Below, one piece after another: positions 894 through 63,250 of a stretch of DNA of 64,000 nt. Source of the DNA: Candidatus Omnitrophota bacterium (GTDB lineage Bacteria > Omnitrophota > Gorgyraeia > Gorgyraeales > Gorgyraeaceae). Made by a program: the position numbers and the translations under genes. Location: NCBI GenBank assembly GCA_018814825.1, contig JAHIYJ010000090.1, positions 1,321 through 65,320 on the forward strand. The letters are read 5' to 3'. The stretch's first letter is position 1. Every line of letters begins with the position of its first letter. Below the pieces are notes generated by a model. The model saw only the letters and a list, made by a program, of their open reading frames with translations. It did no database searches and had not been told where the DNA came from.

Positions 894-1856
894 ATGCGAA
901 AAGTCCTATTTATTACGCTTAGTAATATCGGTGACGTGATCTTGACATTGCCTGTCCTGTCTGGGTTAAAGTACAGTTTCCCGACCGCCAGGATAGATGT
1001 TGTGGTGGGTCCAAGGCCAAGCGAAATATTCAAAAAAGACCCGAGGGTGGGGACTGTCTATGTATACGATAAACAGGACCCGTTAAAAGAAAGGCTCTAT
1101 TTTTTAAGAAAGCTGCGGAGTGAAAAATATGACCTGGCGGTTGACATGAAAACCAGCCTTGTTCCGCTTTTAATAGGAGCTAAAAAGAGGTCTTCTCTGG
1201 TCGCGAGACGCAGTAATGGCGGGAGACATAAAAGCGCGGTTCATCTGGATAAATTGAGAGAATTAGGCTTAGCTCATAGCCCTGAGCCTAGCATTTACAT
1301 TGATGATAGTGACAGAGAAAAGATAGAGGCTCTCCTTAAAAAACATGGCATTGGTAAACCTCACCTGATAGCAGGAATAAGCCCCTCCACGCGAGGCACG
1401 TTAAAGCAGTGGCATACAGACGGATTCATAGAAGTTATCCGGGGGCTCTTGAAGGATGAGAGGCTCAGGATAATCCTTATAGGTGATGGCAGTCAAGTTG
1501 ATATTTCCGGGAAGATAATGGATTACATAAAAAGCGGATCAGTGATAGATCTTACTGGAAAGATTGACCTGAATGGGCTGTTTGCCCTGATAGAGCGCAT
1601 GAGCGTTATGCTTACAGGGGATAGCGCCGCGCTGCATATAGCGTCCGACCTTAGGATAAAGACGGTCGCCTTATTCGGCCCGACTTCTCCGGAAGAATAT
1701 GGTCCCAGAGGCAAGGATGATATCGTGATCAGGAAAAAACTGAAATGTTCTCCCTGCAAGAAGGCTGCCTGTTCGTTTAACCACGAATGCATGAAAGAGA
1801 TAAAACCTGCTGAGGTATTAGAAGCATTAAAAAGACTCTTAAATGGATATTGCTAA
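894..1856 (+). CDS. ADP-heptose:LPS heptosyltransferase (GT9 family), paralog 2
   Basis: 320 aa. N-terminus MRKVLFITLSNIGDVILTLPVL and C-terminal GDSAALHIAS..LFGPTSP are typical of the RfaF/RfaC/RfaQ family. It follows the upstream paralog after a 9-nt gap. Confidence 0.8.
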   Translation: MRKVLFITLSNIGDVILTLPVLSGLKYSFPTARIDVVVGPRPSEIFKKDPRVGTVYVYDKQDPLKERLYFLRKLRSEKYDLAVDMKTSLVPLLIGAKKRSSLVARRSNGGRHKSAVHLDKLRELGLAHSPEPSIYIDDSDREKIEALLKKHGIGKPHLIAGISPSTRGTLKQWHTDGFIEVIRGLLKDERLRIILIGDGSQVDISGKIMDYIKSGSVIDLTGKIDLNGLFALIERMSVMLTGDSAALHIASDLRIKTVALFGPTSPEEYGPRGKDDIVIRKKLKCSPCKKAACSFNHECMKEIKPAEVLEALKRLLNGYC

Positions 1857-2880
1857 AGTCAAGAGAATACTGATAGTCAGGACTGACAGGATAGGCGATG
1901 TGGTGCTTTCAACGCCCGTGATTACGGCTGTAAGGGCCGCTTTTCCGGAAGCCTATATCGCGGTGATGGTTTCTCCCCAGACCAGGGAGATTGTTTCGGG
2001 CAACCCGTATCTTAATGAAGTCATAGCTTATGATAAAATCTCAAAACATAAAGAGTTCTTAAAAACTTTTTTATTCGCAAACTGGCTTAGGGGCAAGAGA
2101 TTTGATCTGGCTCTTATACTGCATTCCACGATAAGAATCAACATTATTTGCTGCCTCGCGGGTATCCCGAGAAGGATAGGCTATGCCAGGGGCAAGATGG
2201 ATTTTCTTTTAACCCATAGGCTGGAATATGTGAAACGGTTAGGAGAAAAGCATGAGATAGAATATTCGCTTGATGTATTACGTTCCTTAGGCGTAAAAGC
2301 GGAGCCATCGCCTCTTGTAATGCCTCTGAAAGAAAGCGTTGTTAAAGAGGCTGATAGTTTGCTATTCGAATCAGGTTTAAAAAAAGACGAGAGGTTCGTC
2401 GTTATCAGTCCCGGTGCCAGCTGTGTTTCCAGGATTTGGCCTTCCGCGAATTTTGCCAGATTGGCCGATATCCTGAAAGAGTGTTTTGGCCTGTCGACAG
2501 TTCTTGTTTCAGGTCCTGAGGAGGTAAAGATAGGAGAGAAGGTCAGGGAGTCGATGAGCAGTAAACCTGTTTTTTTATGCGGCAGGACGTCGCTGGGTGT
2601 TTTAGCGGCAGTATTGAAGCGTGCGTCATTATTAATCTCTAATGATTCAGGACCTGTCCATATAGCGTGCGTCGTTAAAACACCGGTTATTTCCATATTT
2701 TCAAGAAAACAAAAAGGGCTTAGTCCCACGAGGTGGGGGCCCTATGGCGAAAGAAACGCCATTATCCATAAAGACGTTGGATGCGTTAAATGCCTTGCGC
2801 ATAATTGCAGTAAAGGGTTTTTGTGCCTCTACTCGATAACCGTGGAAGAGGTGCTGGAGAAGGCAAGGGAGTTACTCTAA
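1843..2880 (+). CDS. ADP-heptose:LPS heptosyltransferase (GT9 family), paralog 3
   Basis: 345 aa. ILIVRTDRIGDVVLSTPVI, ..NDSGPVHIAC.. and a C-terminal Cys-rich motif. It overlaps the upstream gene by 14 nt, consistent with translational coupling. Confidence 0.8.
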   Translation: MDIAKVKRILIVRTDRIGDVVLSTPVITAVRAAFPEAYIAVMVSPQTREIVSGNPYLNEVIAYDKISKHKEFLKTFLFANWLRGKRFDLALILHSTIRINIICCLAGIPRRIGYARGKMDFLLTHRLEYVKRLGEKHEIEYSLDVLRSLGVKAEPSPLVMPLKESVVKEADSLLFESGLKKDERFVVISPGASCVSRIWPSANFARLADILKECFGLSTVLVSGPEEVKIGEKVRESMSSKPVFLCGRTSLGVLAAVLKRASLLISNDSGPVHIACVVKTPVISIFSRKQKGLSPTRWGPYGERNAIIHKDVGCVKCLAHNCSKGFLCLYSITVEEVLEKARELL

Positions 2881-2915
2881 CTTGACAAAACTTACATTGT
2901 AAGATTTGTCAAGTT
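2879..2915. repeat. 17-bp-arm palindrome AACTTGACAAAACTTAC-att-GTAAGATTTGTCAAGTT placed right after a stop codon and right before an SD (AAGGGGG)
   Basis: Read directly from the sequence. The arms have one mismatch. A second copy with compensatory changes is at 61984..62020. Confidence 0.6.
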
Positions 2916-2923
2916 AAGGGGGT

Positions 2924-3742
2924 ATGAAAATGGCAAGGCTTGTAGTTTTGGTTATTTTAGTGTGCTTGATGGTTGGGTGTGGGATAGCTGCTCAATATAG
3001 AATAGCGGAGCCTCCTGAGGATGTTTCAATAGAGGCCCCTGCCAAAAAACTGGACATCGGGGAAAAATTCACATACAAGGCGGAATGGCTTGGTATGGAT
3101 GTGGGCATTGCCACTTTGTCTGTGCAGGGCATTACGGAACGAAACGGCAGAAAAGTCTATCATATACTCGCCACGGCGGAAACAGTGCCTATTATCTCTA
3201 AGATCTATAAAGTCGAAGACAGGATTTCCAGTTACCTTGATACGGAGAAGCTTTACCCCGTAAGGTTTGAGAAGCAGCAGAGAGAAGGTGGTTATCGCTC
3301 AGATGAATATACTGATTTTGACCAGACTAAAGGAAAGGCTTATTATTTTTCCAGGCGGAACCACACCAAAAAAGAATATGAGATACCGGAAAAAGTCCAG
3401 GACCCCTTGAGCTGTATGTATTATTTCAGACTCCAGGACGTGGCCGTGGGAGAGTCTGTATTCGCGAATGTCAACACTGACGAGAAGAATTATCTGCTAG
3501 AGGCCAAGATACTCAAAAAAGGCATTGTCAGGATTGAGGGCGTGGGAGAATGGGAGGCTTTTATGGTTGAGCCTCTGCCCTGGTTCCAGGGTAAAGTGAC
3601 CAGAAAGGCGAAAGTCACTATGTGGCTTTCATCGGATGAGAAGAGGATACCCCTTTTACTGGTGACAAAAGGCATCCCTTTTGTGGGGACGGTTACCATA
3701 ACCCTCCAGAAAATAGAGTGCCTTGACACTGTGAAAGAATAA
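2924..3742 (+). CDS. Lipoprotein, DUF3108-like (LPS-locus associated), function unknown
   Basis: Signal peptide plus lipobox (MKMARLVVLVILVCLMVGCG). GEKFTYKAEWLGMDVGIATLSV resembles the DUF3108 motif. It sits inside the LPS core gene block. Confidence 0.45.
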   Translation: MKMARLVVLVILVCLMVGCGIAAQYRIAEPPEDVSIEAPAKKLDIGEKFTYKAEWLGMDVGIATLSVQGITERNGRKVYHILATAETVPIISKIYKVEDRISSYLDTEKLYPVRFEKQQREGGYRSDEYTDFDQTKGKAYYFSRRNHTKKEYEIPEKVQDPLSCMYYFRLQDVAVGESVFANVNTDEKNYLLEAKILKKGIVRIEGVGEWEAFMVEPLPWFQGKVTRKAKVTMWLSSDEKRIPLLLVTKGIPFVGTVTITLQKIECLDTVKE

Positions 3743-5686: not shown

Positions 5687-5746
5687 AAAATGAGTGCTTG
5701 GTTATCAGCAGCTGATAGCTGATAACTGATAGCTGAAAGCTGATAT
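5687..5746. repeat. Heptamer-periodic inverted repeat, (AGCTGAT)n with a GTTATCAGC/GCTGATAAC stem
   Basis: The sequence reads gttatcagcagctgatagctgataactgatagctgaaagctgatat. The 7-nt register is visible by eye. Confidence 0.6.
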
Positions 5747-6505
5747 ATGGATGTTATAGGGATAATTCCGGCGAGATACGGCGCGACGCGATTTGAGGGC
5801 AAGCTTCTGGCTGACCTGTGCGGTAAGCCTGTTATACAGCACACATGGGAGAATGCCAAGAAGTCCAGATCAATAGAAGACCTTTTAATCGCTACTGACG
5901 ATAAGCGTATTTACAATACCGCTAAGGGCTTTGGCGCTAAAGCGGTATACACCTCAAAAGCTCACAAAAGCGGTTCAGACAGGCTGACAGAGATCGCCAG
6001 CCAGTTTGAGGCCAAAATCATCGTGAATATCCAGGCAGATGAGCCATTGCTGCACCCCTCGATGATCGACAATATAGTAGACCCTCTCCTTAGAGATAAG
6101 GATATTCAGATGGCAACTCTCTGTCATAAGATTGAATCAGAGCACGAGCTCTTTGACAGGAATACGGTAAAAGTCGTGCTCGACAGGAAGGGTTTCGCCC
6201 TGTATTTTTCCAGAGCGGCCATTCCTTATAAGCCGCGTTCTATCCATAACGGCAACAGGATCTCGAATTGTTATAAACATATCGGACTCTACGCTTATAC
6301 CAGGGATTTTCTTTTCACGTTCAAGAGCCTGCCTCAGTCAACGCTGGAGAAGATAGAGAAATTAGAGCAGTTAAGAGTGATAGAGAACGGATATAAGATA
6401 AAAGTGGTTGAGACAAAATACGATACGGTGGGCATAGATACTCCTGAGGACCTGGCCCGGGCGAGGGAATTGATACAGGGGTCAAAGCAGTTGAGTTTTT
6501 TGTAA
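5747..6505 (+). CDS. kdsB: 3-deoxy-manno-octulosonate cytidylyltransferase (CMP-Kdo synthetase)
   Basis: IIPARYGATRFEGKLLADLCGKPVIQHTWENA is a KdsB-type N-terminus. 252 aa. Confidence 0.85.
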   Translation: MDVIGIIPARYGATRFEGKLLADLCGKPVIQHTWENAKKSRSIEDLLIATDDKRIYNTAKGFGAKAVYTSKAHKSGSDRLTEIASQFEAKIIVNIQADEPLLHPSMIDNIVDPLLRDKDIQMATLCHKIESEHELFDRNTVKVVLDRKGFALYFSRAAIPYKPRSIHNGNRISNCYKHIGLYAYTRDFLFTFKSLPQSTLEKIEKLEQLRVIENGYKIKVVETKYDTVGIDTPEDLARARELIQGSKQLSFL

Positions 6506-13659: not shown

Positions 13660-15354
13660 ATGTCAGGGAAACAGAAAAAAGCTTTAGGTGAGAGCCTTGT
13701 GGAAGAGGGCATAATAACAGCTGAGCAGTTGAAACAGGCTAAGACAGAAGAAAAACGTTCGGGTCTCAGGTTAAGAAAAGCCCTCGTGAAAACAGGGTTG
13801 ATTACGGAAGAAGACCTTGTAATGTTTCTGAGCGGTAAGCTAGGTATACCACGGATAGAGCTAGGCAGTTATTTGATAGACTCTAAAGTAACGGAATTGG
13901 TGTCGGAGGATCTGGCGCGGAAATACGAGCTTATACCGATATTTAAAATAGGCAATCGTCTCACCTGCGCCATGGTCGATCCCTGGAATGTATTTGCCCT
14001 GGATGAGATAAGGCTCAAGACAAATTTGATTATAGAGCCTGCGGTGGCGACAGAGGCTGAGATAAAAAAGGCCCTGGATGAACATTATGGCGCGAAGGGG
14101 ACCATGGAAGACGTGATAAAGTCTATTGATGAGAAAGGCATTGGCGCAAAGGACGGAAAAGAAATAGACCTCAAGGAATTAGAGGGAATCGCTGAAGAGC
14201 CAGTAGTCATAAAATTGGTAAATCTGATTATAATGAAGGCTGTCCGCGAAGGCGCCAGCGATATCCATATAGAGCCCGAAGAGGATACGCTAAAGACGAG
14301 ATTCAGGGTAGATGGCGTGTTACACGAGGTATCTGCCTCGCCTAAACATCTTCAATCAGCAATTATTTCAAGGATTAAGATAATGGCGAATCTGGACATA
14401 GCGGAGAGGAGGGCGCCTCAGGACGGCAGGTTCACGCTCAAGATGGAAGGCAGGGAGATCGATATACGGGTTTCCTGTATGCCTACCATATATGGAGAGA
14501 ATGTCGTATTGCGAATATTGGATGTATCGAGTGCCCTATTGGACTTCAAAGATACGGGTTTTTCAGAAGATATTTTAGAAAAATATCAGAAACTTATTTT
14601 TCATCCGCATGGCATGATATTGGTCACTGGACCGACAGGATGCGGGAAAACTACCACGCTTTATGTCTCATTGGACAAAATAAATACAGTTGAGAAGAAT
14701 ATTATAACTATTGAAGATCCCGTTGAGTATAAACTATCTGGTATAAGGCAAATGCAGGTGAATCCCAAGGTAGATCTGACGTTTGCCAATGGTTTGAGGT
14801 CGATGTTAAGACAGGATCCTGACGTGATAATGGTAGGCGAGATCAGAGATTTCCAGACAGCAGAGATAGCGATTCACGCTGCCCTGACCGGGCATCTGGT
14901 CTTTTCCACGCTCCACACGAATGACGCGGCAGGGGCATTAACGAGGATGATTGATATGGGTGTCGAGCCGTTTCTTGTCTCCTCTTCCCTAATTGCTGTC
15001 TTGGCGCAGAGGCTTGTGAGGACTATCTGTAAGGATTGCAAAGAAGAATATACCCCGACAGAGGAAACCATGCGAGACATCGGCCTTCTCGACGAGCGAC
15101 GAATAAAATTCTATCGCGGCAAAGGCTGTTCCAAATGCATGAATACAGGCTATAAAGGCAGGATCGGGATATTTGAGTTGATGCCAATAGATGAGAATAT
15201 ACGCAAACTGACTATAGCCAGAGCGCCGCATGATGAGGTCAAAAAACAGGCTATAGCCTCAGGCATGATAACGCTGAAACAGGACGGCATTAAAAAGGTA
15301 AAAGAAGGTATTACTACTGTTGAAGAGATGCTTCGCGTGATCCAGGAGGAGTAA
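13660..15354 (+). CDS. pilB: Type II/IV filament assembly ATPase (GspE/PilB family), copy 1
   Basis: N-terminal T2SSE_N-like domain. Walker A GPTGCGKTTT and a C-terminal tetracysteine motif (CKDC..CSKC). 564 aa. Confidence 0.9.
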   Translation: MSGKQKKALGESLVEEGIITAEQLKQAKTEEKRSGLRLRKALVKTGLITEEDLVMFLSGKLGIPRIELGSYLIDSKVTELVSEDLARKYELIPIFKIGNRLTCAMVDPWNVFALDEIRLKTNLIIEPAVATEAEIKKALDEHYGAKGTMEDVIKSIDEKGIGAKDGKEIDLKELEGIAEEPVVIKLVNLIIMKAVREGASDIHIEPEEDTLKTRFRVDGVLHEVSASPKHLQSAIISRIKIMANLDIAERRAPQDGRFTLKMEGREIDIRVSCMPTIYGENVVLRILDVSSALLDFKDTGFSEDILEKYQKLIFHPHGMILVTGPTGCGKTTTLYVSLDKINTVEKNIITIEDPVEYKLSGIRQMQVNPKVDLTFANGLRSMLRQDPDVIMVGEIRDFQTAEIAIHAALTGHLVFSTLHTNDAAGALTRMIDMGVEPFLVSSSLIAVLAQRLVRTICKDCKEEYTPTEETMRDIGLLDERRIKFYRGKGCSKCMNTGYKGRIGIFELMPIDENIRKLTIARAPHDEVKKQAIASGMITLKQDGIKKVKEGITTVEEMLRVIQEE

Positions 15355-15420
15355 CCTTATCGTTTACCGTGTACCGTTTACCGCACGAGACGGTACACGG
15401 TAAACTGTAAGCGAAACACG
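15355..15420. repeat. Heptamer-periodic hairpin (CGTTTAC/CGTGTAC units; 15-bp stem TTTACCGTGTACCGT / ACGGTACACGGTAAA)
   Basis: The sequence reads cgtttaccgtgtaccgtttaccgcacgagacggtacacggtaaactgtaagcgaaacacgg, lying between pilB and pilC. Confidence 0.65.
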
Positions 15421-15431
15421 GAGGTTTTAAG

Positions 15432-16646
15432 TTGCCTACTTACATTTATAAAGCCAGGGATGCCACAGGTAAGTTAGTGAAAGGCACCATGGACGCGTCC
15501 AATAGAGACGAACTTACAGAGAAACTCCAAAGAATGGGGTATATGACTACCTATGCCGCGGAGATCACTCCCGGAGTCAGGGTCGAATCTATATTTGAAA
15601 GGATGAGGAGGATAAGCGCCGAGGACATGATAATATTTAATGTCCAGCTCGCCAATATGATAAATTCAGGTATACCTATTCTGGTCTGCCTGGATACGCT
15701 GGATAAACAGATTGAAAACAGGACGCTGAGGATCACCGTCGGTAATGTGAAGAGAAATCTTGAGTCAGGCGACAGCTTCTCTCAGGCCCTGGCGAGGCAC
15801 CCGCGGGTATTCTCCAAGTTATTTATAAATATGGTAAAGACCGGTGAGGCCAGCGGAAAGCTGGATACTGTTTTGACCGGGTTTGCTGAATTTACTGAAC
15901 GACAGGAAGAGTTAAAGCAGAAGATTAAAGGTGCGCTTTTTTACCCGATCATACTTTTATTCGCCGGTATCGCGGTCACGATTTTCATAGTTACTTTTAT
16001 TATCCCTCAGTTTGCCGAGATTTTCATGAAGGTAGGCATAAAATTACCCGCGCCTACATTGATCCTTTATAGGATTGGGACGGCCATCAAGAGTTACTGG
16101 TATTTAATAGGCCTTTTTTTTGCGGTAACATGCATAGGCGTAAAATATTATATAAGGACAGAAAAAGGTAGATTTAATTTTGATAGACTTAAATTAAAAG
16201 CACCTGTGCTTGGCCCATTGTTTCGTAAAGTGGCGATATCGAGATTTGCCAGGACATTGGCGACGCTTGTCTCAAGCGGTGTTTCTATATTGGTATCACT
16301 GGATATTACAAAGGAGGTAATTGGGAATGAAGTACTGAGTCGTGTTATTACAAATGTCCGCGCTTCTGTTGAGAAAGGAGAAGGCATTGCCGAGAGCCTG
16401 AAGATAAGCGGGGAATTCCCCCAGGATACAGTGCAGATGATCTCGGTAGGAGAGGAGACAGGAAATTTAGAGGGCATGCTGAATAAGATCTCGGATTTTT
16501 ACAATATGTCTTTAGGATACACCATAAAAAAGTTGACTACTATAATAGAGCCTTTATTTTTGGTCATCATGGGGAGCATGGTGGGTTTTATCATGGCGTC
16601 GATGCTTTTACCGATGTTTGACATGATGAAGGTATTGAGACATTGA
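15432..16646 (+). CDS. pilC: Inner-membrane platform protein (GspF/PilC family), copy 1
   Basis: Apparent TTG start after GGAGG. MPTYIYKARDATGK.. plus two T2SSF repeats. 404 aa. Confidence 0.85.
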   Translation: MPTYIYKARDATGKLVKGTMDASNRDELTEKLQRMGYMTTYAAEITPGVRVESIFERMRRISAEDMIIFNVQLANMINSGIPILVCLDTLDKQIENRTLRITVGNVKRNLESGDSFSQALARHPRVFSKLFINMVKTGEASGKLDTVLTGFAEFTERQEELKQKIKGALFYPIILLFAGIAVTIFIVTFIIPQFAEIFMKVGIKLPAPTLILYRIGTAIKSYWYLIGLFFAVTCIGVKYYIRTEKGRFNFDRLKLKAPVLGPLFRKVAISRFARTLATLVSSGVSILVSLDITKEVIGNEVLSRVITNVRASVEKGEGIAESLKISGEFPQDTVQMISVGEETGNLEGMLNKISDFYNMSLGYTIKKLTTIIEPLFLVIMGSMVGFIMASMLLPMFDMMKVLRH

Positions 16647-16686
16647 TCTCGTATATCGTATGTAGTATGTCGTATATAGTATATCG
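16647..16686. repeat. Heptamer tandem repeat (TCGTATA/TCGTATG units), forward orientation
   Basis: The sequence reads tctcgtatatcgtatgtagtatgtcgtatatagtatatcg, immediately after the pilC stop. Confidence 0.65.
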
Positions 16687-16725
16687 TTTTTCATTGAACA
16701 CTGAATGCAAAAAAAGGGGGTGGTT

Positions 16726-17175
16726 ATGAGAAAAGGTTTTACACTAATTGAGCTATTGATAGTCATTGCGGTGATATCTATCCTGATCGGGATCGCTCTC
16801 CCGCGTTTTAAGGGGATGCAGGATGAAGGAAATATTGCCAAAGCAAAGGGAGAATTAAAAACGCTTCAAGTCGCAGTAGAGAGTTATTATATCCATAATA
16901 ATAATACCTATCCAGCCACAGGTTCTGCAGCGCTTGAGACAGCATTAGCCAGCGCCACCCCTAGCATCATAACTTCTGTGCCTACGGATCCTTTTCGTTC
17001 TACCGGGGCGGATTATGTATATGTAAGAGGTGGTACAAACGGCAAATACTATATTATTTATTCTGTGGGGCCGGGCGGCAATGGAAGCGCGTCTATATCG
17101 AGCAATGCAGTCAGCGAGACGAATGGCTCGAGCTGCATCTATGTCTCTAATATGGGGGAGGATGTACAGCCATAA
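16726..17175 (+). CDS. gspG: Major pseudopilin / type IV pilin, GspG-like (short MRKG leader, class III signal)
   Basis: MRKG|FTLIELLIVIAVISILIGIALP, then ..YP..LP/VPTDPF..YYIIYSVGPGGNG, which resembles the GspG C-terminal signature. The ATG at 16726 follows GGGGGTGG. The listed ORF starts earlier, at 16705. Confidence 0.65.
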   Translation: MRKGFTLIELLIVIAVISILIGIALPRFKGMQDEGNIAKAKGELKTLQVAVESYYIHNNNTYPATGSAALETALASATPSIITSVPTDPFRSTGADYVYVRGGTNGKYYIIYSVGPGGNGSASISSNAVSETNGSSCIYVSNMGEDVQP

Positions 17176-17210
17176 CTCGTATGTAGTATGTCGTACATAG
17201 CATATCGTAA
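17176..17210. repeat. Heptamer tandem repeat (forward type), left flank of the four-helix-bundle gene
   Basis: The sequence reads ctcgtatgtagtatgtcgtacatagcatatcgtaa. Confidence 0.6.
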
Positions 17211-17211
17211 T

Positions 17212-17574
17212 ATGGATAAGAAGATCAGAAGTTTTAAGGATTTGAAAATTTGGCGAAAAGGTATAGAGATTGTCAAAGATACTTACGGGCTAACAGAGAG
17301 CTTTCCAGATAAAGAATTATATGGTTTAACGTCTCAGATGAGAAAGGCAGCTGTATCTCTGCCGTCAAATATAGCTGAAGGATTTAAAAGGTATCATAAT
17401 AAAGAATATAAGCAATTTTTACATATAGCCTTAGGATCAGCGGCAGAATTGGAAACACAGTTTATAATAGCACAAGAGCTTGACTATATTAACAAGGAAG
17501 AACTCGAAAATATCTCAGAAAAGTTAGATCATCTTTCAAAGATGATAACTGCCTTAATACATAAGTTAAGATAA
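17212..17574 (+). CDS. Four-helix-bundle protein (23S rRNA intervening-sequence protein family, PF05635-like)
   Basis: FPDKELYGLTSQMRKAAVSLPSNIAEGFKR is the hallmark motif of this family. About 120 aa. It lies between inverted copies of the heptamer repeat. Confidence 0.75.
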   Translation: MDKKIRSFKDLKIWRKGIEIVKDTYGLTESFPDKELYGLTSQMRKAAVSLPSNIAEGFKRYHNKEYKQFLHIALGSAAELETQFIIAQELDYINKEELENISEKLDHLSKMITALIHKLR

Positions 17575-17963
17575 TGACATGCCTACGATATACGATATAC
17601 GATATACGATATACGAAATGTGGGTTCACTCTACTCGAGATCCTGATTACCATCATCATCCTCACAATAGGCGTGGTTACATTGACCAGCGCTTTTAGTT
17701 CAGGGCTCTTCGCCACTACCGATGTTGAGAATGTGGATCTGGCATTAAATATTGCGCAGGCAAAGATGGAGCAGATCAAGAATACAGCCTTTGCCAGTTT
17801 AGTTGACAGCGGGCCTACTGCTGATGCGAATTTCTCGAACTTTAACGTAACCGTAGATGTGGCCGAGGGCGATGATCCTATGCAGGTGGATGTTACAGTT
17901 AGTTGGAATGTTAAAGGCGGCTCGCCGAGCATTACGTTGACGACGCTGGTCGTTGATTACTGA
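17574..17963 (+). CDS. Minor pseudopilin, GspI/PilV-like; the predicted leader MTCLRYTIYDIRYTKCG is encoded by heptamer repeats
   Basis: The prepilin motif G|FTLLEILITIIILTIGVV is followed by ALNIAQAKMEQIKN. The only in-frame ATG upstream of the cleavage site is 17574, which overlaps the TAA of the previous gene as TAATG. Confidence 0.6.
   Translation: MTCLRYTIYDIRYTKCGFTLLEILITIIILTIGVVTLTSAFSSGLFATTDVENVDLALNIAQAKMEQIKNTAFASLVDSGPTADANFSNFNVTVDVAEGDDPMQVDVTVSWNVKGGSPSITLTTLVVDY
17583..17610. repeat. (CGATATA)n heptamer repeat, reverse orientation, inside the 5' coding end of the GspI-like gene
   Basis: The sequence reads cctacgatatacgatatacgatatacgaa. Confidence 0.65.
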
Positions 17964-17964
17964 T

Positions 17965-17985
17965 TATCGTATATAGTATATCGTA
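17965..17985. repeat. Heptamer repeat, forward type (TCGTATATAGTATATCG)
   Basis: Nearly the reverse complement of 18044..18060, with one mismatch. Confidence 0.6.
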
Positions 17986-17987
17986 AA

Positions 17988-18590
17988 ATGCAAAACCATA
18001 ATTCAAAACTAGGATTATTAAACCCCCAATTTTTACCCAAAAAGCGATATACGATATACGACATACGACATACGAAACAAGGTTTAACTCTCATTGAGCT
18101 AATGATAACAATCGCGATGTTCAGTATTCTGGCAGTAGTTACCGTATATATATTTCGAGCGGTTTTATTAAGCTGGTCAAGTCAGGAGACAAGGGCAGGG
18201 ATTGATATAGTCCTTGATAGAGGCATAGAAGAGATGGTGCGGGATTTAAGAGAGGCAAAAGAGATTCAATCCACTGGCGGTTATGACGAGATAAGATTTT
18301 CACAGGACCAGAGCACTTATTATATCTACTACCTTTATAATGCCAGAGATTCTTATGCTCCTCCGCCAGCCTTTGACCAGACTGTATACGAATTGAGGAA
18401 AGCGGTTTTAACAGGAGATATAAACGGAAGTTTTACGTATGGCTCAGGCCAGATTATAATAACCGATGTCCTTCCTCCTGCTGTTTCTGATTTGTCCTTG
18501 AGTGGTAATATAGTGGCTATTGACCTGAGTGTTGCCAGGGGCGATGAAGCGATTCGCTCGAGGACCGAAGTGATGCCGAGAAATCTTTGA
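17988..18590 (+). CDS. Minor pseudopilin, GspJ/PilW-like; long repeat-containing leader
   Basis: ..KKRYTIYDIRHTKQG|LTLIELMITIAMFSILAVV. The leader segment MQNHNSKLGLLNPQFLPKK is paralogous to the one in the next gene. Confidence 0.55.
   Translation: MQNHNSKLGLLNPQFLPKKRYTIYDIRHTKQGLTLIELMITIAMFSILAVVTVYIFRAVLLSWSSQETRAGIDIVLDRGIEEMVRDLREAKEIQSTGGYDEIRFSQDQSTYYIYYLYNARDSYAPPPAFDQTVYELRKAVLTGDINGSFTYGSGQIIITDVLPPAVSDLSLSGNIVAIDLSVARGDEAIRSRTEVMPRNL
18044..18078. repeat. (CGATATA/CGACATA)n heptamer repeat, reverse orientation, in-frame within the leader
   Basis: The sequence reads gcgatatacgatatacgacatacgacatacgaaac. Confidence 0.65.
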
Positions 18591-18629
18591 TTCGTATATA
18601 GCATATCGTATGTAGTATATTGTAAAATG
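18591..18629. repeat. Heptamer repeat, forward type
   Basis: The sequence reads ttcgtatatagcatatcgtatgtagtatattgtaaaatg. Confidence 0.6.
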
Positions 18630-19766
18630 ATAGACAAAAACTTAAAACCAGGATTTTTAAACAAATCTTTTTTACTACCAAACGATATACGATATACGAC
18701 ATACGATATACGAAACATGCGATATGCGAAACGAGGCTCTGTCCTGATCATGACTTTCATAATCATGGCAACTCTTATTTCTATAACTTTAGGCTTTTTA
18801 TTTATGATGTCTATACAGCTTAAAGGTTCGGGATATGATGTGGCGAGTTCAAAGGCCCTCTGGCTGGCTGAGGCGGGATTGCAGAAGGTTATTTATCAGA
18901 TCAAAAATAGCTCTAGTTTTAGAGATAATCCGACTACCATAACCGGAAATTTAGAAAATGGGGGTTATTCTGTGAGTGTGAGTAAAAATGGAATCACATA
19001 CTCGCTTAGCTCAACCGGGACAGAATCTGACATATCGAGAACAGTAGAGTTGGATGCAGTTGTCAGCTCAAATGGAGGTAGTTATCCCGATGGCGCCCCT
19101 GAGGCATTTAATTATGCCATGCATTCTTTTGGCAATCACATCAAGTTCAAAGATTCCGAGGGCACTATTAACGGAAATGTGGCCTCGGCCAACAGTGTGC
19201 AAAATTCAGGCGATCCAACGATAAACGGCATCGTAACCAGTAATTCCACCGTACCCACGCCTTTTACGGTTAATATGGCTGGTTATCAGTCTATAGCCGA
19301 TAACGTTGAGAGCAGTAATTATACTTTTACGGAAGGTAATACCTATGGCTCCTCTGGCAGCGAACAAATTTGGTATGTGCAGGGGAATGTTACGATAGAA
19401 GAAAATGTTGCTATCTATGGCACAGTTGTTGCTGAGCATAATGTCACTTTGGGCAGTGAAGATATAACAATCGATGCAGCATCTGGTTACCCCGCTCTCA
19501 TCGCAGGCAATAATATTAGCGGAGATGGATTAGAAAATAGTGCTATAAATGGGTTGATTGCCGCAGAAAACAATATTGATTTTGATAACATCAAAGATGC
19601 TACTATCAATGGGGCAATACTCGCCGGCAATAATATAACTATGAGAGATGGCGAAGATTTTACAGTTAATTACGACTCAGATATAACATCCAATCCGCCC
19701 CCATATTTTAGCGGCTATGGGGGCACTACTACTGTTACGACACAGGGTTGGAATGAGATTACATGA
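18627..19766 (+). CDS. Minor pseudopilin, GspK/PilX-like (PilX_N-like N-terminus, no Glu5), with a large N/G/T-rich C-terminal domain
   Basis: ..RYAKRGSVLIMTFIIMATLISITLGFLFMM..ALWLAEAGLQKV is PilX/GspK-type. An alternative internal start is ATG ~18717 (MRYAKRG..). Confidence 0.55.
   Translation: MIDKNLKPGFLNKSFLLPNDIRYTTYDIRNMRYAKRGSVLIMTFIIMATLISITLGFLFMMSIQLKGSGYDVASSKALWLAEAGLQKVIYQIKNSSSFRDNPTTITGNLENGGYSVSVSKNGITYSLSSTGTESDISRTVELDAVVSSNGGSYPDGAPEAFNYAMHSFGNHIKFKDSEGTINGNVASANSVQNSGDPTINGIVTSNSTVPTPFTVNMAGYQSIADNVESSNYTFTEGNTYGSSGSEQIWYVQGNVTIEENVAIYGTVVAEHNVTLGSEDITIDAASGYPALIAGNNISGDGLENSAINGLIAAENNIDFDNIKDATINGAILAGNNITMRDGEDFTVNYDSDITSNPPPYFSGYGGTTTVTTQGWNEIT
18683..18733. repeat. 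(CGATATA)n heptamer repeat, reverse orientation, 7 units
   Basis: The units read cgatata|cgatata|cgacata|cgatata|cgaaaca|tgcgata|tgcgaaa. Confidence 0.65.
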
Positions 19767-19835
19767 TCGTTTACCGTTACGGTTAACGGTAAACAGCGAG
19801 GCGAAGCCGAGCGGGTAAACGGTAAACGCAACAAG
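19767..19835. repeat. Hairpin repeats of the CGGTAAA/CGTTTAC heptamer family
   Basis: GTTTACCGTT-acggtt-AACGGTAAAC forms a perfect 10-bp stem. It is followed by gggtaaacggtaaacg. Confidence 0.6.
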
Positions 19836-19845
19836 GGATACATAA

Positions 19846-21438
19846 ATGAATGTAAGAGGGGTTTTTCAGAAAGATTACATAGTAGGGCTGGACATCGGAT
19901 CTTCTTCTATAAAATTGGCCAAATTTTTGAAAACTCCGGACGGTTTATGTCTTATAAAGACCGATATAGAAGAGGTTAGCAGCTATGCAGTTGATGAGGC
20001 CTTGCGCGGGAAAGAAATACAAAGTCTTCTAAAAAAAATTACCAGAGGGGTAGATGTAAGCAACTCTAAATTTATTGTCACTATCAATTGTCCCAAGACC
20101 GCCATAAAAAAAGCGATAGTGCCTTATATGCCAAGGACAGAATTGCGTAATGCCATAAGATTGGCGGTAAAGAATTATTTCCCGTTTCCAATAGACGACT
20201 CCTTGGTAGATTTTGAGATATCGGGCGAGGTGATTGAAAAAGGTGTTAAAAAATTTGAGGTCCTGGTCGCGACCTCCCCTAAAAAGACAGTTAACGAATT
20301 TTTATCTATATTGAAGGAAGCAGGTGTAAAACCAGTTTCATTCATTGCCGTTCCTTATGCGATGCAAAGATTAGCCCATGCATTTTATCCTGGCGAGGGC
20401 CAGACAAGGTGTTTTCTTGATATAGGCAGTTGTCATACAGAATTGGTTATATTAAAAGGAAAGGGCCTGGTTTTTTCCCGTAAGATCCCTGTTGCAGGCA
20501 ATGATATTACTAAAGAGATGACAGGAGTTTTGGTCTCGGACAAGGGCAGGACAGAGCTTTCATTGGACGAGGCTGAAAAAATAAAGCGGAAAATAGGGCT
20601 ACCTCCTGAAGGCGAATCAAAGATGATAAATGACAAGATTTCCACGACTCAAATTTTATCTATGATAAGGATGCCTTTGGAGCAATTAGTAAATGAGATA
20701 GAAAGATGTTTTGATTATTACAGGGAAGAGGCGGAAGGCGGAAAGATAGATTCGTTTGTTCTATTAGGCGGAGGCTCTTCTCTCAGGAGACTTACGGATT
20801 TTCTTTCTAAGGAATTAGGAATAGAAGTAAAGTTGTTAAGCTCCCTCGAGGGTATAAAAATTGAGCCTGGGGCAATAGACGGACGCGCGCCCGAACTACA
20901 TAGATTAGCCCTGGCTATAGGCGCGGGTTTAGGTGGGGTAAAGGGGCTTAATCTGCTGCCCCTGGAAATTAAAGAAGAGACGAAAAAAACCTTTAAACGA
21001 GCGGGCATTCAGGCCGTGGTTACAGGGGTTATTATTACTCTGGCCCTTGTCTATATCGGGATGAGAATACAGGTTACGAGTTTTCAGAAAAGGATCGCGG
21101 CCAGCAGGATAGAGATGTTAAGTTTAAAGCCCCAGATGGAACAGGTCAAGGCGCAGAATTTGACAAGCGAGATATTGCGAAATGAGCCATACTGGGAAGA
21201 CGTGTTTAGGGAGTTGAGTAATATAGTTCCTGACGATAGCTATCTTACACAATTTACCATGAAGGACAAGACCTTTAAGATGCGAGGCGTGGTTATATCC
21301 AGTGCGCCTGAAGAGATCTTGTCTGGTTTTATACTTGCGCTTGAAAAGGGTATATTTAAGGACGTGAGGCTTATTAGCACAAAAGAGATCAGAGATACGA
21401 CCGGCAATGAATTTGAATTAGAATGTCGAATCGATTAA
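19846..21438 (+). CDS. PilM-PilN fusion (MshI-like): actin-like ATPase-fold domain + TM + PilN domain
   Basis: IVGLDIGSSSIKLAKF is the PilM N-terminus. The C-terminal third has a TM segment (AVVTGVIITLALVYIG) followed by a PilN-like periplasmic domain. 530 aa. Confidence 0.75.
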   Translation: MNVRGVFQKDYIVGLDIGSSSIKLAKFLKTPDGLCLIKTDIEEVSSYAVDEALRGKEIQSLLKKITRGVDVSNSKFIVTINCPKTAIKKAIVPYMPRTELRNAIRLAVKNYFPFPIDDSLVDFEISGEVIEKGVKKFEVLVATSPKKTVNEFLSILKEAGVKPVSFIAVPYAMQRLAHAFYPGEGQTRCFLDIGSCHTELVILKGKGLVFSRKIPVAGNDITKEMTGVLVSDKGRTELSLDEAEKIKRKIGLPPEGESKMINDKISTTQILSMIRMPLEQLVNEIERCFDYYREEAEGGKIDSFVLLGGGSSLRRLTDFLSKELGIEVKLLSSLEGIKIEPGAIDGRAPELHRLALAIGAGLGGVKGLNLLPLEIKEETKKTFKRAGIQAVVTGVIITLALVYIGMRIQVTSFQKRIAASRIEMLSLKPQMEQVKAQNLTSEILRNEPYWEDVFRELSNIVPDDSYLTQFTMKDKTFKMRGVVISSAPEEILSGFILALEKGIFKDVRLISTKEIRDTTGNEFELECRID

Positions 21439-21448
21439 AGGGGCTGGG

Positions 21449-21958
21449 ATGGAACTTACTAAAGATAGAGCTGCGATAATTATAACGGGTGTGATTGCAG
21501 TAGTTACCTTGGGGGTATATCTATTTTTGTATAGGCCGGCTATTTCCAAATGCAGTGAGGCTGGTTGCGAGTGCAGGATGATTGAATCAGAAGTTTTAAG
21601 GGCCAGAGAGTCAATGTATCTTTTAAAACAGGATGCTGCGAAACGTGTATTCGTGTCAGAAAACAATATATCTGTTGCCATAGATGAGTTGACGAAACAA
21701 GGCAGGTCTAAAGGCATTAATTTTACCTCTATTACCCCGGGAAAAATCGAGAATCCTGGAGATGTCGGGTATAAGATCCTTCCTATAGACATGGAGATAG
21801 AGTCAACTTATAAGGAATTGGCGGTATTTCTGGGTTTACTGGAAGGGCTGAAGGAGAGCCTTGTTACAGTAAAGGATATTGATATTGCCTCCGAAGAGAT
21901 AAGAAGCGCAAAACTAAGGGCCAGATTGATACTGAATATGTATCTTTCATACCAATAG
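21449..21958 (+). CDS. pilO: PilO/GspM-like inner-membrane assembly protein
   Basis: N-terminal TM plus coiled-coil. Size and position match PilO (169 aa). Confidence 0.5.
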   Translation: MELTKDRAAIIITGVIAVVTLGVYLFLYRPAISKCSEAGCECRMIESEVLRARESMYLLKQDAAKRVFVSENNISVAIDELTKQGRSKGINFTSITPGKIENPGDVGYKILPIDMEIESTYKELAVFLGLLEGLKESLVTVKDIDIASEEIRSAKLRARLILNMYLSYQ

Positions 21959-22058
21959 CAGTTATACATGTTTCGTGTACCGTTAACCGCTAACCGTTTA
22001 CCGTAACGGTTCACGATAAACGCTAAACGCTACACGGTAAACGGTAAACGGTAAAGCA
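21959..22058. repeat. About 100-nt array of heptamer repeats (CGTTAAC, CGCTAAC, CGTTTAC ... CGGTAAA x3) with inverted halves
   Basis: The right half reads cgataaa|cgctaaa|cgctaca|cggtaaa|cggtaaa|cggtaaa. It lies between pilO and pilP. Confidence 0.65.
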
Positions 22059-22490
22059 ATGCAGAATAAGAAAATAATAACGTTGATTATTTTAGGGATC
22101 CTAGCTGTCTTTAGCCTGGTTTATGGGATAGTTACTCCTTCAAAGGCAAGGCGCGGGATTTCTCGAGGGCCTATCGAGACTAAAAAGAAAGTGACAATTA
22201 GTGCAGGGGCAGAGACAATTTCTGGGGTAGGACGGCCGCAAAGGACCAGTTTCTCCGACTGGGGCAGAGATCCTTTTTCCGCGGTTTCGACGCTATCCCT
22301 ATCAACAAATATTTCCGATATGAGCCTTACAGGCATACTGTGGGACGACGTGGCGCCTCTCGCCATGATCAATGACAATCTCATAGGAATAGGAGATAAG
22401 ATCGGTGAGTATACTGTGGCGGAGATTAAAAAAGATCGAGTAATCCTGACTGATGGCACCAATGATTATCAACTCACCCTTCCTTATTAA
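22059..22490 (+). CDS. pilP: PilP-like periplasmic protein
   Basis: TM anchor and a C-terminal beta domain (EYTVAEIKKDRVILTDGTNDYQLTL). Position follows PilO. Confidence 0.45.
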   Translation: MQNKKIITLIILGILAVFSLVYGIVTPSKARRGISRGPIETKKKVTISAGAETISGVGRPQRTSFSDWGRDPFSAVSTLSLSTNISDMSLTGILWDDVAPLAMINDNLIGIGDKIGEYTVAEIKKDRVILTDGTNDYQLTLPY

Positions 22491-62037: not shown

Positions 62038-63174
62038 ATGAAAAACTATTTACTTACACCAGGGCCGACTCCTGTGCCTCCCGAAGCTCTGGAGTCGATG
62101 GCAAGGCCGATAATACACCACAGGACGCCGCAGTTTCAGGAGATCTTGAAGGAAGTGGAAGACAACCTGAAATATGTATTCCAGACCACAAACCCGGTTC
62201 TTATATTTTCTTCAAGCGGTACAGGCGCAATGGAAGGCGCGGTTACCAGCCTCCTTTCCCCTGGAGATAAGGCCATAGTGGTAAGGGGCGGAAAATTCGG
62301 AGAAAGATGGGGGGAGCTTTGCGCGGCTTACGGCATAGAATTTATCCCCGTGGATGTGGAATGGGGCAAATCGGTTAGTCCGCAGGAGATAAAGAAAATT
62401 CTTGAAGCTGAAGGCTCAAGGCTGAAGGCTGTATATGTAACGCTATGCGAGACTTCAACAGGCGTTACGACTGATATAGAGGCTCTCGCGAAGATCACAA
62501 AAAGTTCCGAGGCTGTCTTGGTGGTTGATGCAATAAGCGCTCTGGGAGCCGTTCCTTTAAAGACTGATGAATGGGGGATTGACGTCGTGGTGTCAGGTTC
62601 GCAGAAGGGGCTGATGATCCCACCCGGGCTCGCGTTTGTAAGCCTGAGTGAAAAGGCCTGGAAACTGGCCGAGGAGTCCACATTGCCAAAGTATTATTTC
62701 AATTTCAAGGCATATAAAAAATCTATCGAGAAAAACGATACGCCTTACACACCGGCCGTGAATCTTATCATGGCCTTAAGAGAGGTTTTAAAACTGATAA
62801 GAAAAGAAGGCATTGATAACCTGATAAACCGCCACAGAAAAAACAGTAAGGCGGTACGGGACGCCGTTAAGGCTCTTGGCCTTGAGCTATTCGCTCCTCA
62901 GGCGTATTCAGAGGCGGTTACCGCGGTCATGGTACCAGAAGGTGTTGACGGAGGCAAACTTGTAAAGACCATGCGTGATAAGTACGGTGTGGCGATCGCC
63001 GGCGGCCAGTCACAGCTAAAAGGGAAAATATTCAGGATAGCCACCATGGGTTACATAACAGAGGATGATTTGAAAAAGGGTTTTGAGGTCCTGGAGATAG
63101 TCCTTGCGGAGCTGGGATATAAATTCGAGAAGAGCGCAGGAGTTAAAGCGCTGGAAAGAGGATTAGCAAGTTAG
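62038..63174 (+). CDS. Class V PLP-dependent aminotransferase (AGXT/SerC-like); possibly the phosphoserine aminotransferase, given the adjacent serA
   Basis: MKNYLLTPGPTPVP.. 378 aa. It is contiguous with a D-3-phosphoglycerate dehydrogenase gene. Confidence 0.65.
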   Translation: MKNYLLTPGPTPVPPEALESMARPIIHHRTPQFQEILKEVEDNLKYVFQTTNPVLIFSSSGTGAMEGAVTSLLSPGDKAIVVRGGKFGERWGELCAAYGIEFIPVDVEWGKSVSPQEIKKILEAEGSRLKAVYVTLCETSTGVTTDIEALAKITKSSEAVLVVDAISALGAVPLKTDEWGIDVVVSGSQKGLMIPPGLAFVSLSEKAWKLAEESTLPKYYFNFKAYKKSIEKNDTPYTPAVNLIMALREVLKLIRKEGIDNLINRHRKNSKAVRDAVKALGLELFAPQAYSEAVTAVMVPEGVDGGKLVKTMRDKYGVAIAGGQSQLKGKIFRIATMGYITEDDLKKGFEVLEIVLAELGYKFEKSAGVKALERGLAS

Positions 63175-63180
63175 AATTAG

Positions 63181-63250
63181 TGAGCTTTCAGCCTTCAGCC
63201 ATCAGCCTTCAGCAGCTGACAGCTGAAAACTGGAAGCTGATGGCTAACAT
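63181..63250. repeat. Heptamer-periodic inverted repeat (YTTCAGC)x4 then (AGCTGAN)x4, forming a hairpin
   Basis: The units read tttcagc|cttcagc|catcagc|cttcagc|agctgac|agctgaa|aactgga|agctgat. Confidence 0.65.

Follow-up and report, generated by a model that had tools for sequence, protein, structure and literature searches.

A four-helix-bundle gene between inverted heptamer arrays, probably a cassette of the intervening-sequence type, in a pseudopilin operon of Candidatus Omnitrophica

The stretch of DNA analysed here, a window of 64,000 nucleotides from contig JAHIYJ010000090.1 (GenBank assembly GCA_018814825.1), belongs to a metagenome-assembled genome (MAG) of Candidatus Omnitrophica and carries on its + strand (13660-21958) a type IV filament operon similar to those of type II secretion systems and type IV pili (T2SS/T4P), with the gene order gspE, gspF, gspG-like, three minor pseudopilins, pilM/N-like and pilO-like. 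Between the gspG-like gene and the gspI-like gene lies a small gene of the four-helix-bundle (4HB) family, also known from the intervening sequences (IVS) of 23S rRNA, and this gene is flanked by tandem arrays of 7-nucleotide units in inverted orientation. The feature is probably an IVS-type hairpin cassette, that is, a promoter-less 4HB gene between inverted arrays of four to five heptamers, which is now found in an mRNA. The 4HB protein of the S23p/4HB family was reportedly found in Leptospira rRNA in 1993, and we know of no function established for it since its discovery; members of the family have been annotated thousands of times simply as "four helix bundle protein".

The four-helix-bundle gene and its insertion into the operon

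The protein encoded by the 4HB gene of the window scores 136.2 bits against PF05635 (cut-off 33.8), 128.6 bits against TIGR02436 (cut-off 24) and 152.7 bits against NF008911 (cut-off 137), and matches the structure 2GSC (XCC0516) over residues 6-120 with E=4.7e-27. The first-pass annotation, which was made by a model from the sequence alone, had placed the open reading frame (ORF) 17212..17574 in the 23S rRNA IVS/4HB family, and the PF05635, TIGR02436 and 2GSC matches confirm this assignment. XCC0516 and bAvd are both homopentamers, and by its homology to 2GSC the protein of the window is predicted to be a homopentamer as well. The profile search gave 4HB-family domains only, with no recognisable nuclease or transposase domain in the protein, and the S-x3-N-x2-E motif described for the family (PMC3936711) is found as S49-LPS-N53-IA-E56. 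The protein appears to be under purifying selection, with a ratio of nonsynonymous to synonymous substitutions (dN/dS) of at most about 0.16 against its nearest relatives and 31 invariant columns in an alignment of 30 4HB sequences. The public record annotates a 116-aa version of it, and no further 4HB copies are found across the 64-kb window. No promoter or terminator belonging to the cassette stands out, the promoter-like sites numbering 19 against 13 +/- 3.4 expected and none of them being well placed. In a second assembly, GCA_018824945.1, the identity is 99.9% overall and 100% across the cassette region.

The operon was compared with six orthologous operons from Omnitrophota relatives (L002, L003, L004-L006, L007 and L208), in which GspG is 86-89% identical; GspG homologues within Omnitrophica range from 74 to 89% identity. 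In none of the six are gspG and the gspI-like gene separated by a 4HB gene, and the distance between them ranges from a 4-nt overlap up to 99 nt. In L208, which is the closest relative and has an operon free of any hairpins, and also in L002, the stop of gspG and the start of the gspI-like gene overlap as GTGA, and in L004 an ATG is found 4 nt past the gspG stop. By this comparison, the cassette is an insertion relative to the six related operons, and the insertion site appears to be the junction of two originally overlapping genes (gspG stop/gspI start). Because it is missing from the six orthologous operons, the 4HB gene is not a conserved member of the operon. The first-pass annotation had proposed the insertion of a small cassette, to be checked against orthologous loci, and had given as the refuting case a gene conserved at this position in divergent relatives without repeats; the six operons bear out the proposal, and no such conservation was found.

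The insertion also took away the original start codon of the gspI-like gene. In the closest orthologues this start is a GTG or ATG located two codons before the G-F-T motif, a position that is overwritten in the window, where the codons ahead of G-F-T-L-L-E consist of array sequence (ACG AAA TGT GGG). The short repeat-encoded leader of the gspI-like gene (MTCLRYTIYDIRYTKCG, from ATG 17574), which the first annotation had already noticed, results from this loss of the original start. Set beside L208, L002 and L004, the junction of the window shows a replaced start-codon region and no clear target-site duplication. The next pseudopilin ORF is opened by ATG 17988, right after the forward array F3, and has a 32-aa leader, and the third minor pseudopilin keeps an ancestral-type start at 18717 (MRYAKRG; compare MIREKRG in L208). 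Prepilin leaders are cut off after a glycine, which is plausibly why array-encoded leaders are tolerated by pseudopilin genes. Leaders of this kind (KRITNHESRITS ahead of KGFTLIE) are also found in GspG homologues of other Omnitrophota; the homologues examined were P0035, P0067, P0017, P0100 and P0101. As separate observations, other Omnitrophota GspG homologues carry, ahead of the normal start, a 14-aa module (MNCVxLKEQKGxxK) in one to three tandem copies, and at 17961-17990 of the window the gspI-like gene and the next pseudopilin share a reading frame, the TGA of the former preceding the ATG of the latter by eight codons. Read-through of this TGA would join both pseudopilins, which is probably a coincidence.

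The two arms lie very close to the genes around them (Table 1). The upstream arm F2 starts one base past the gspG-like stop (TAA 17173-75), ends 2 nt short of the 4HB ATG and closes two reading frames; the downstream arm R2 begins 9 nt past the 4HB stop, is stop-free in every frame (0 frames closed) and is translated as the leader ...LRYTIYDIRYTK. The inverted alignment of F2 and R2 scores 36 against 27 at the 99th percentile of position controls, the potential stem measures about 33 bp, the RNA duplex reaches -31.4 kcal/mol against -7.4 +/- 2.9 in shuffles, and F2 pairs with R2 in the fold of the full-length RNA. The forward repeat that the first annotation saw directly upstream of the gene corresponds to the array at 17176-17209; the reverse repeat that it placed at 17583..17610 is indeed present, with the corrected extent 17584-17618. 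In the window as a whole, CGATATACGA occurs 21 times with at most one mismatch, against 2.3 expected (an excess of about 9-fold), with 19 of the 21 occurrences inside 16649-18729, and 13 period-7 arrays are found against 0.44 in shuffles. The intergenic ones consist of tandem 7-nt units in two to six copies and often form convergent pairs or abut start codons, as in the heptamer families described below.

The 4HB gene had further been described as occupying the slot where the other minor pseudopilins have a forward-spacer-reverse element, and the next two gaps do carry such an element, in the form of sister hairpins without a gene. Their spacers, of 59 nt in the first and 57 nt in the second, are similar to each other, and either 'CGTAA(A/T)ATG' or 'TGTAAAATG' is found 3' of the forward array in all three elements, the cassette and the two sister hairpins. 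The possibility that the spacers are remnants of a deleted 4HB gene was rejected, given that their local alignment to the gene is no better than that of shuffles (p=0.15 and 0.99). The RNA of the solo forward array F1 is able to pair with each of the three downstream reverse arrays (-40 to -51 kcal/mol). A search of Rfam gave no match at E<=1 within 15300-22200.

Table 1. Coordinates of the cassette, its neighbouring genes and the heptamer arrays of the operon region (positions in the window).
Feature	Position	Strand	Details
4HB gene, '23S rRNA IVS protein', 120 aa	17212..17574	+	PF05635/TIGR02436 profiles
Upstream arm F2, CGTATGT/AGTATGT-type heptamers	17176..17209	+	arm score 36; duplex with R2
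Downstream arm R2, perfect (CGATATA) units, then terminal CGAAA	17584..17618	+	100% unit matches
ATG overlapping the 4HB stop (TAATG)	17574..17576	+	sole in-frame canonical start left for the gspI-like gene
gspG-like major pseudopilin gene	16726..17175	+	PF08334, PF07963; start MRKGFTLIELL
gspI-like minor pseudopilin ORF	17574..17963	+	PF07963; 17-aa array-encoded leader MTCLRYTIYDIRYTKCG, then FTLLEIL
Solo forward heptamer array F1, directly past the gspF stop	16649..16687	+	no reverse partner in its own gap
Sister hairpin without gene: F3 17965-17985, spacer 17986-18044, R3 18045-18078	17965..18078	+	fold z=-3.1
Second sister hairpin without gene: F4 18592-18624, spacer 18625-18681, R4 18682-18716	18592..18716	+	fold z=-5.2
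Small heptamer hairpin without gene, second unit TTACCGT/ACGGTAA	15358..15417	+	between gspE stop and gspF Shine-Dalgarno sequence
TTACCGT-type heptamer hairpin, no cargo, no Shine-Dalgarno sequence	21970..22055	+	fills the gap from the pilO-like stop to ATG 22059

Inverted heptamer arrays across the 4HB family

One genome per species was scanned with the 30-sequence 4HB alignment, which yielded 80 loci from Planctomycetota, Atribacterota, Omnitrophota, Nitrospirota, Desulfobacterota, Bacillota, Bacteroidota and Patescibacteria and, among the archaea, from the ANME-1 and Methanomicrobiales groups. When the 150 nt upstream of each gene were aligned with the reverse complement of the 150 nt downstream, using position-matched controls, 70 of 77 4HB genes exceeded the 95th percentile of the controls and 56 of 77 the 99th. 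Inverted flanking arrays are present at 64 of 76 4HB genes and at 13 of 188 other genes of the same loci (p=2e-28), and one of these 13 turned out to be a divergent 4HB gene. In about 90% of the arms the best period is 7 (59/67 upstream and 60/67 downstream), and the median array contains 4.4 copies of a unit that varies among loci (AGATGCC, CGTGAAG, AGTTACG, GTTTTCG, TAGGGGT and others). The inverted-array layout is a rule of the whole family and is not peculiar to the locus of the window. Neither is it an artefact of MAG assembly, because it is seen on finished plasmids too: 8 of 12 plasmid loci have inverted flanking arrays (score of at least 29), including those of Nostoc, Geminocystis, Anabaena, Picosynechococcus, Riemerella and Azospirillum. 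There is a concentration of 4HB genes on plasmids of Nostoc, Calothrix and Anabaena.

The position of these genes is also rather uniform. The upstream neighbour points the same way as the 4HB gene in 73 of 80 cases, and the downstream one in 67 of 79, as compared with 200 of 269 other adjacent pairs, and the median gaps, of 55 nt upstream and 52 nt downstream, are filled by the arms, the downstream one frequently starting at the 4HB stop codon or overlapping it. In 50 of 61 loci, the G+T-rich arm is the upstream one, read on the coding strand. This arm polarity, together with the co-orientation of the gene, points to a strand-specific constraint linked to the transcript. A device closing all three reading frames in the upstream arms appeared as a trend only (on average 1.63 frames closed, against 1.29 in shuffles). 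Elsewhere, members of the family lie between unrelated genes, such as cas6/cas4, cas10/cmr3, cmr2/cmr3, ribonucleotide reductase genes and 23S rRNA, and a 4HB gene between cmr3 and cmr2 has been published (PMC3936711). In L217 (490-1100 of plasmid pPg_01 of Pseudanabaena galeata), where the gene lies between cas6 and cas4, the arrays are long and direct, the unit AAAGCTA being repeated about 14 times upstream and AAAGCCA about 10 times downstream.

Array unit and protein co-vary, and by these comparisons the cassette appears to move as a unit. In a Mantel test of unit distance against protein distance, none of 2000 permutations reached the observed value, and nearest-protein neighbours have a common unit in 13 of 53 cases against a background of 6%. 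The closest 4HB relative of the window protein (78% identical) comes from a MAG labelled Planctomycetia and shares the unit type of the window. Tandem cassettes, each with its own unit, occur in L040 (three, 1280-3360) and L022 (two, 2216-3366), and their proteins are divergent, with 39-59% and 61-64% identity to the 4HB protein of the window, respectively. Arrays without a gene in the same 6-kb locus also tend to have the unit of the local cassette (16 of 46, against 2.6 expected), and the window behaves alike. Arrays are about 8 times denser beside 4HB genes than elsewhere in the same loci, and those away from the genes amount to 65 in 366 kb; shuffles contain 1, and 50 kb of Escherichia coli none. 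The first-pass annotation had raised the idea that the repeat element is a carrier of this gene family, which agrees both with the inverted arrays at 64 of 76 members and with the co-variation of unit and protein.

Only one of 93 loci examined (L224) is located in rRNA. This locus, at 552-1024 of plasmid AZO_p2 of Azospirillum lipoferum 4B, is a helix-45 23S IVS with a 4HB ORF and heptamer-array arms; it lies between E. coli 23S positions 1163 and 1186, has a fold z of -8.9 and carries no annotated features in its record. The best described counterpart is the IVS of Coxiella, which has a 28-bp terminal stem that is cut mid-stem by RNase III in vitro, an S23p ORF in the loop, and three or four tandem GACAGAT heptamers ahead of the S23p start, the heptamer copy number differing among strains; RNase III excision of the IVS has also been reported for Leptospira (PMC4990558). 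The cassette of the window shares with the IVS of Coxiella and Leptospira a protein of the same family in the loop, a terminal stem of about 28-33 bp, tandem heptamers beside the start of the ORF, as noted for Coxiella, and the lack of a promoter of its own. Because the IVS of Coxiella and L224 have its features, the element of the window can be regarded as the same kind of object in another host molecule. It differs from them in lying between protein-coding genes (gspG-like/gspI-like) and not in helix 9, 25 or 45 of the rRNA; furthermore, cutting an mRNA has consequences that are absent for rRNA, and the downstream arm of the window also codes for part of the next gene.

Proposed processing and alternative explanations

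By analogy with the classical 23S rRNA IVS, the arms are most readily taken for the termini of the cassette itself rather than for a local landing pad. The cassette would be transcribed by read-through from the operon promoter, and the F2/R2 stem would be an RNase III substrate, like that of the Coxiella IVS. Cleavage would then release the 4HB message and uncouple the abundant gspG-like transcript from the transcript of the minor pseudopilins. In the transcripts that remain uncut, ribosomes ending the 4HB ORF may re-initiate at TAATG and continue through the stop-free R2, a step suggested by the sequence, to give a prepilin whose array-encoded leader would be removed by prepilin peptidase, and the host would thereby tolerate the insertion. 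Cleavage and translation would thus compete, the former silencing the downstream genes and the latter melting the stem as ribosomes cross the arm. The sister hairpins without a gene and the solo forward array may have arisen locally from the same element or may recombine with it. Recombination between arrays with matching units would be the simplest possible route of cassette movement, and it would explain the swap of spacer and gene at otherwise identical hairpins.

Several observations weigh against this reading. The source organism is represented by MAGs alone, and a few plasmid loci have direct arrays (Pseudanabaena, Gemmatirosa) or no clear partner array (plasmids of Nostoc PCC 7120). The 4HB gene of the window lacks a Shine-Dalgarno sequence, with just 2 nt between arm and ATG, an SD-like motif is found, by a crude pattern, in only 34 of 82 family members, and the protein of the Coxiella homologue went undetected in vivo (PMC4990558). 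Efficient cutting by RNase III would part the gspI-like coding region from its sole canonical start, and therefore either processing is partial or the minor pseudopilins are impaired. Moreover, the arm mismatches show no sense-strand excess of G-U over A-C types (89 against 82) and the antisense F2/R2 duplex is as stable as the sense one; for these two reasons the arms could act as DNA, and selection on an RNA stem is only a possibility. RNA-level selection detectable as an excess of G-U wobble was accordingly discarded as a line of support, there being no signal and no advantage of the sense duplex over the antisense.

These last points lead to the explanation that the arrays matter as DNA, as cruciforms or hairpins of single-stranded DNA (ssDNA), in replication slippage or as recombination hot spots, with no RNA processing, and that the tight co-directional position reflects only where insertions are tolerated. 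The equal pairing of the antisense strand and the missing G-U excess are joined here by the predominance of transversion-type mismatches (237/408), the variation of copy number among Coxiella strains (PMC4990558) and the direct arrays of some loci, which are unable to form a stem. We nevertheless consider this explanation unlikely, as experiments have shown RNase III to excise the Coxiella IVS at just such a stem, the same being reported for that of Leptospira (PMC4990558), and as the arms have a fixed polarity with respect to the coding strand and the gene is co-oriented with its neighbours. Another alternative starts from the abundance of hairpins without a gene: the heptamer hairpins would be independent, host-wide repeats, and an ORF without arms would have been swapped into an existing loop, for instance by recombination within the arrays. 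Arrays and hairpins without the gene do far outnumber those that bear it. Among 120 metagenome loci with CGAYATACGAYATACGA, the 4HB gene is present in 2 and an inverted pair without a gene (score of at least 27) in 23, the remaining ones having solo arrays or a weak partner only; the window has about 11 intergenic arrays for its one 4HB gene; the two neighbouring gaps carry the same arms around an unrelated spacer of about 57-59 nt with no similarity to the 4HB gene; and the same junctions of L007 carry hairpins with a different unit. Such a swap is hard to reconcile, on the other hand, with arms on almost every 4HB gene in phyla with differing units, with a unit that follows the protein and not the host only, with the tandem cassettes of one genome having each its own unit (L040, L022), with a downstream arm that often begins at or overlaps the ORF stop and has, like its partner, a polarity fixed relative to the ORF, or with the closest relative, L208, having no hairpin in its operon at all. 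It is accordingly judged to be rather improbable, and the arms are taken as part of the cassette. Apart from this comparison, the loops of CGTATAT-type hairpins in the metagenome loci L090, L127, L158 and L165 often hold arrays of other units (for example CTTCTGG, GTTGCAA and GGTAACT), and therefore arrays occur nested or clustered.

Two further explanations concern the gene itself. The 4HB protein could work in pseudopilus assembly and belong at the gspG/gspI position as a stable accessory; in favour of this, its reading frame is undamaged, the selection on it is purifying, and TAATG links its translation to that of the next gene. Its absence from all six orthologous operons refutes this unless many unsampled relatives carry a 4HB gene there, and the family sits between unrelated genes elsewhere, so that such a role is very improbable. 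The protein could also be the accessory protein Avd left by, or serving, a diversity-generating retroelement (DGR) with a nearby reverse transcriptase. It shares with Avd a homologous four-helix-bundle fold and shows a weak similarity to the bAvd profiles PF22296 and NF033474 (30.7 bits each). Both scores, however, are under the respective cut-offs (40 and 80), no reverse transcriptase domain is found among the genes called within 10 kb either side of the 4HB gene, template/variable repeats are likewise missing here, and the gene has a single relative among 2.9 million viral contigs; a DGR origin is hardly credible on these grounds, and a phage origin of the 4HB gene was rejected on the last of them.

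Within the reading of the feature as an IVS-type cassette, a more daring proposal is that the 4HB protein acts in trans as partner to the heptamer arrays, with a homopentamer reading about five 7-nt units on RNA or ssDNA. We regard this as possible and, on present evidence, doubtful. If it were true, the 4HB protein would drive or stabilise the spread, processing or recombination of the arrays, and 4HB genes would relate to heptamer hairpins as the REP-associated tyrosine transposase (RAYT) genes do to the repetitive extragenic palindromic (REP) sequences. The excess of heptamers in Xanthomonas, heterocystous cyanobacteria, Beggiatoaceae, Omnitrophota and others would then be the footprint of one family, and the rRNA IVS a special case of it.

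Further arrays, related repeats and meaning for the family

Other heptamer arrays of the window lie outside the cassette and its sister hairpins. The hairpin at 15358-15417 is laid out as stop, hairpin, CGAAAC, Shine-Dalgarno sequence and start, and the relative L007 has the TTACCGT unit in the same layout at its gspF/gspG and gspG/gspI junctions; the hairpin at 21970-22055 ends 3 nt short of ATG 22059. The gspG-like gene is preceded by the Shine-Dalgarno sequence AAGGGGG. Intergenic arrays with other units are located at 5706-5750 (AGCTGAT) and 63178-63241 (AGCCTTC, then AGCTGAN), and no 4HB gene cognate to the AGCTGAT or AGCCTTC arrays is found in the window. At 62400-62436, an array-like stretch of TGAAGGC lies within an aminotransferase ORF (…EAEGSRLKA…) and is approximately the reverse complement of the intergenic array that lies about 750 nt farther downstream, immediately beyond the aminotransferase gene. 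In L002 (4458-4541), the variable loop of gspE between two CxxC motifs is encoded by DNA similar to heptamer arrays (AGCTATC…, GCTGAAA…) and is 3 residues longer than that of the GspE of the window.

Intergenic heptamer repeats have been described in several bacteria, such as GGGAATC in Xanthomonas, with 70-75 convergent pairs, and GGGGA(C/T)T and the short tandemly repeated repetitive (STRR) sequences in Nostoc/Calothrix (PMC4692102), or TAACTGA in Beggiatoaceae, whose arrays often end 1 nt before a start codon in the absence of a Shine-Dalgarno sequence (PMC4679880). These families (STRR, GGGAATC, TAACTGA) resemble the arrays of the window in being tandem 7-mers of two to six copies, often in convergent pairs, with an unexplained distribution across phyla, and differ from them in their units, which are unlike the CGTATAT type. 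According to the supplement of the Xanthomonas study, repeat #15, a GGGAATC array, overlaps with the beginning of XCC0516, the 4HB protein that has been crystallised (PMC4692102). Both studies treat heptamer repeats as G-quadruplexes or regulatory motifs (PMC4692102; PMC4679880), and term searches of the two papers found no mention of the 4HB family. Beyond the remark on Coxiella, no statement of a general link between 4HB genes and heptamer arrays was found in the literature, of which our coverage is incomplete, so that prior notice is possible.

Other known systems are similar in part. REP/RAYT pairs (REPtrons) and MITEs (transposable elements of the miniature inverted-repeat type) likewise consist of one gene between inverted copies of a short repeat, with more gene-less copies dispersed in intergenic gaps. 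In contrast to them, neither a nuclease nor a transposase domain is recognisable in the 4HB protein, and its repeats form tandem arrays of heptamers, not single palindromes. No clear target-site duplication was seen for the cassette of the window, whose mobility is put forward as a proposal only. The hairpins between cistrons that are processed by RNase III offer a long stem between genes needed in unequal amounts, as major and minor pseudopilins are; these hairpins normally have no gene in the loop and supply no start codon to the next gene, and for the stem of the window processing is an inferred property.

The 4HB gene is thus normally carried between inverted heptamer arrays, co-directional with its neighbours in operons and only rarely in rRNA, a general property that is apparently unreported. 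For annotation, this means that start codons beside heptamer arrays are easily miscalled and that pilin leaders can be encoded by arrays. A 4HB gene in a cas operon is probably an insertion of the same array-cassette kind and not a Cas component. Two questions become testable, namely whether the 4HB protein binds to its own arrays and whether RNase III cuts the hairpin. Taken together, the results indicate that the orphan 4HB family and the unexplained excess of intergenic heptamers are two sides of one element.

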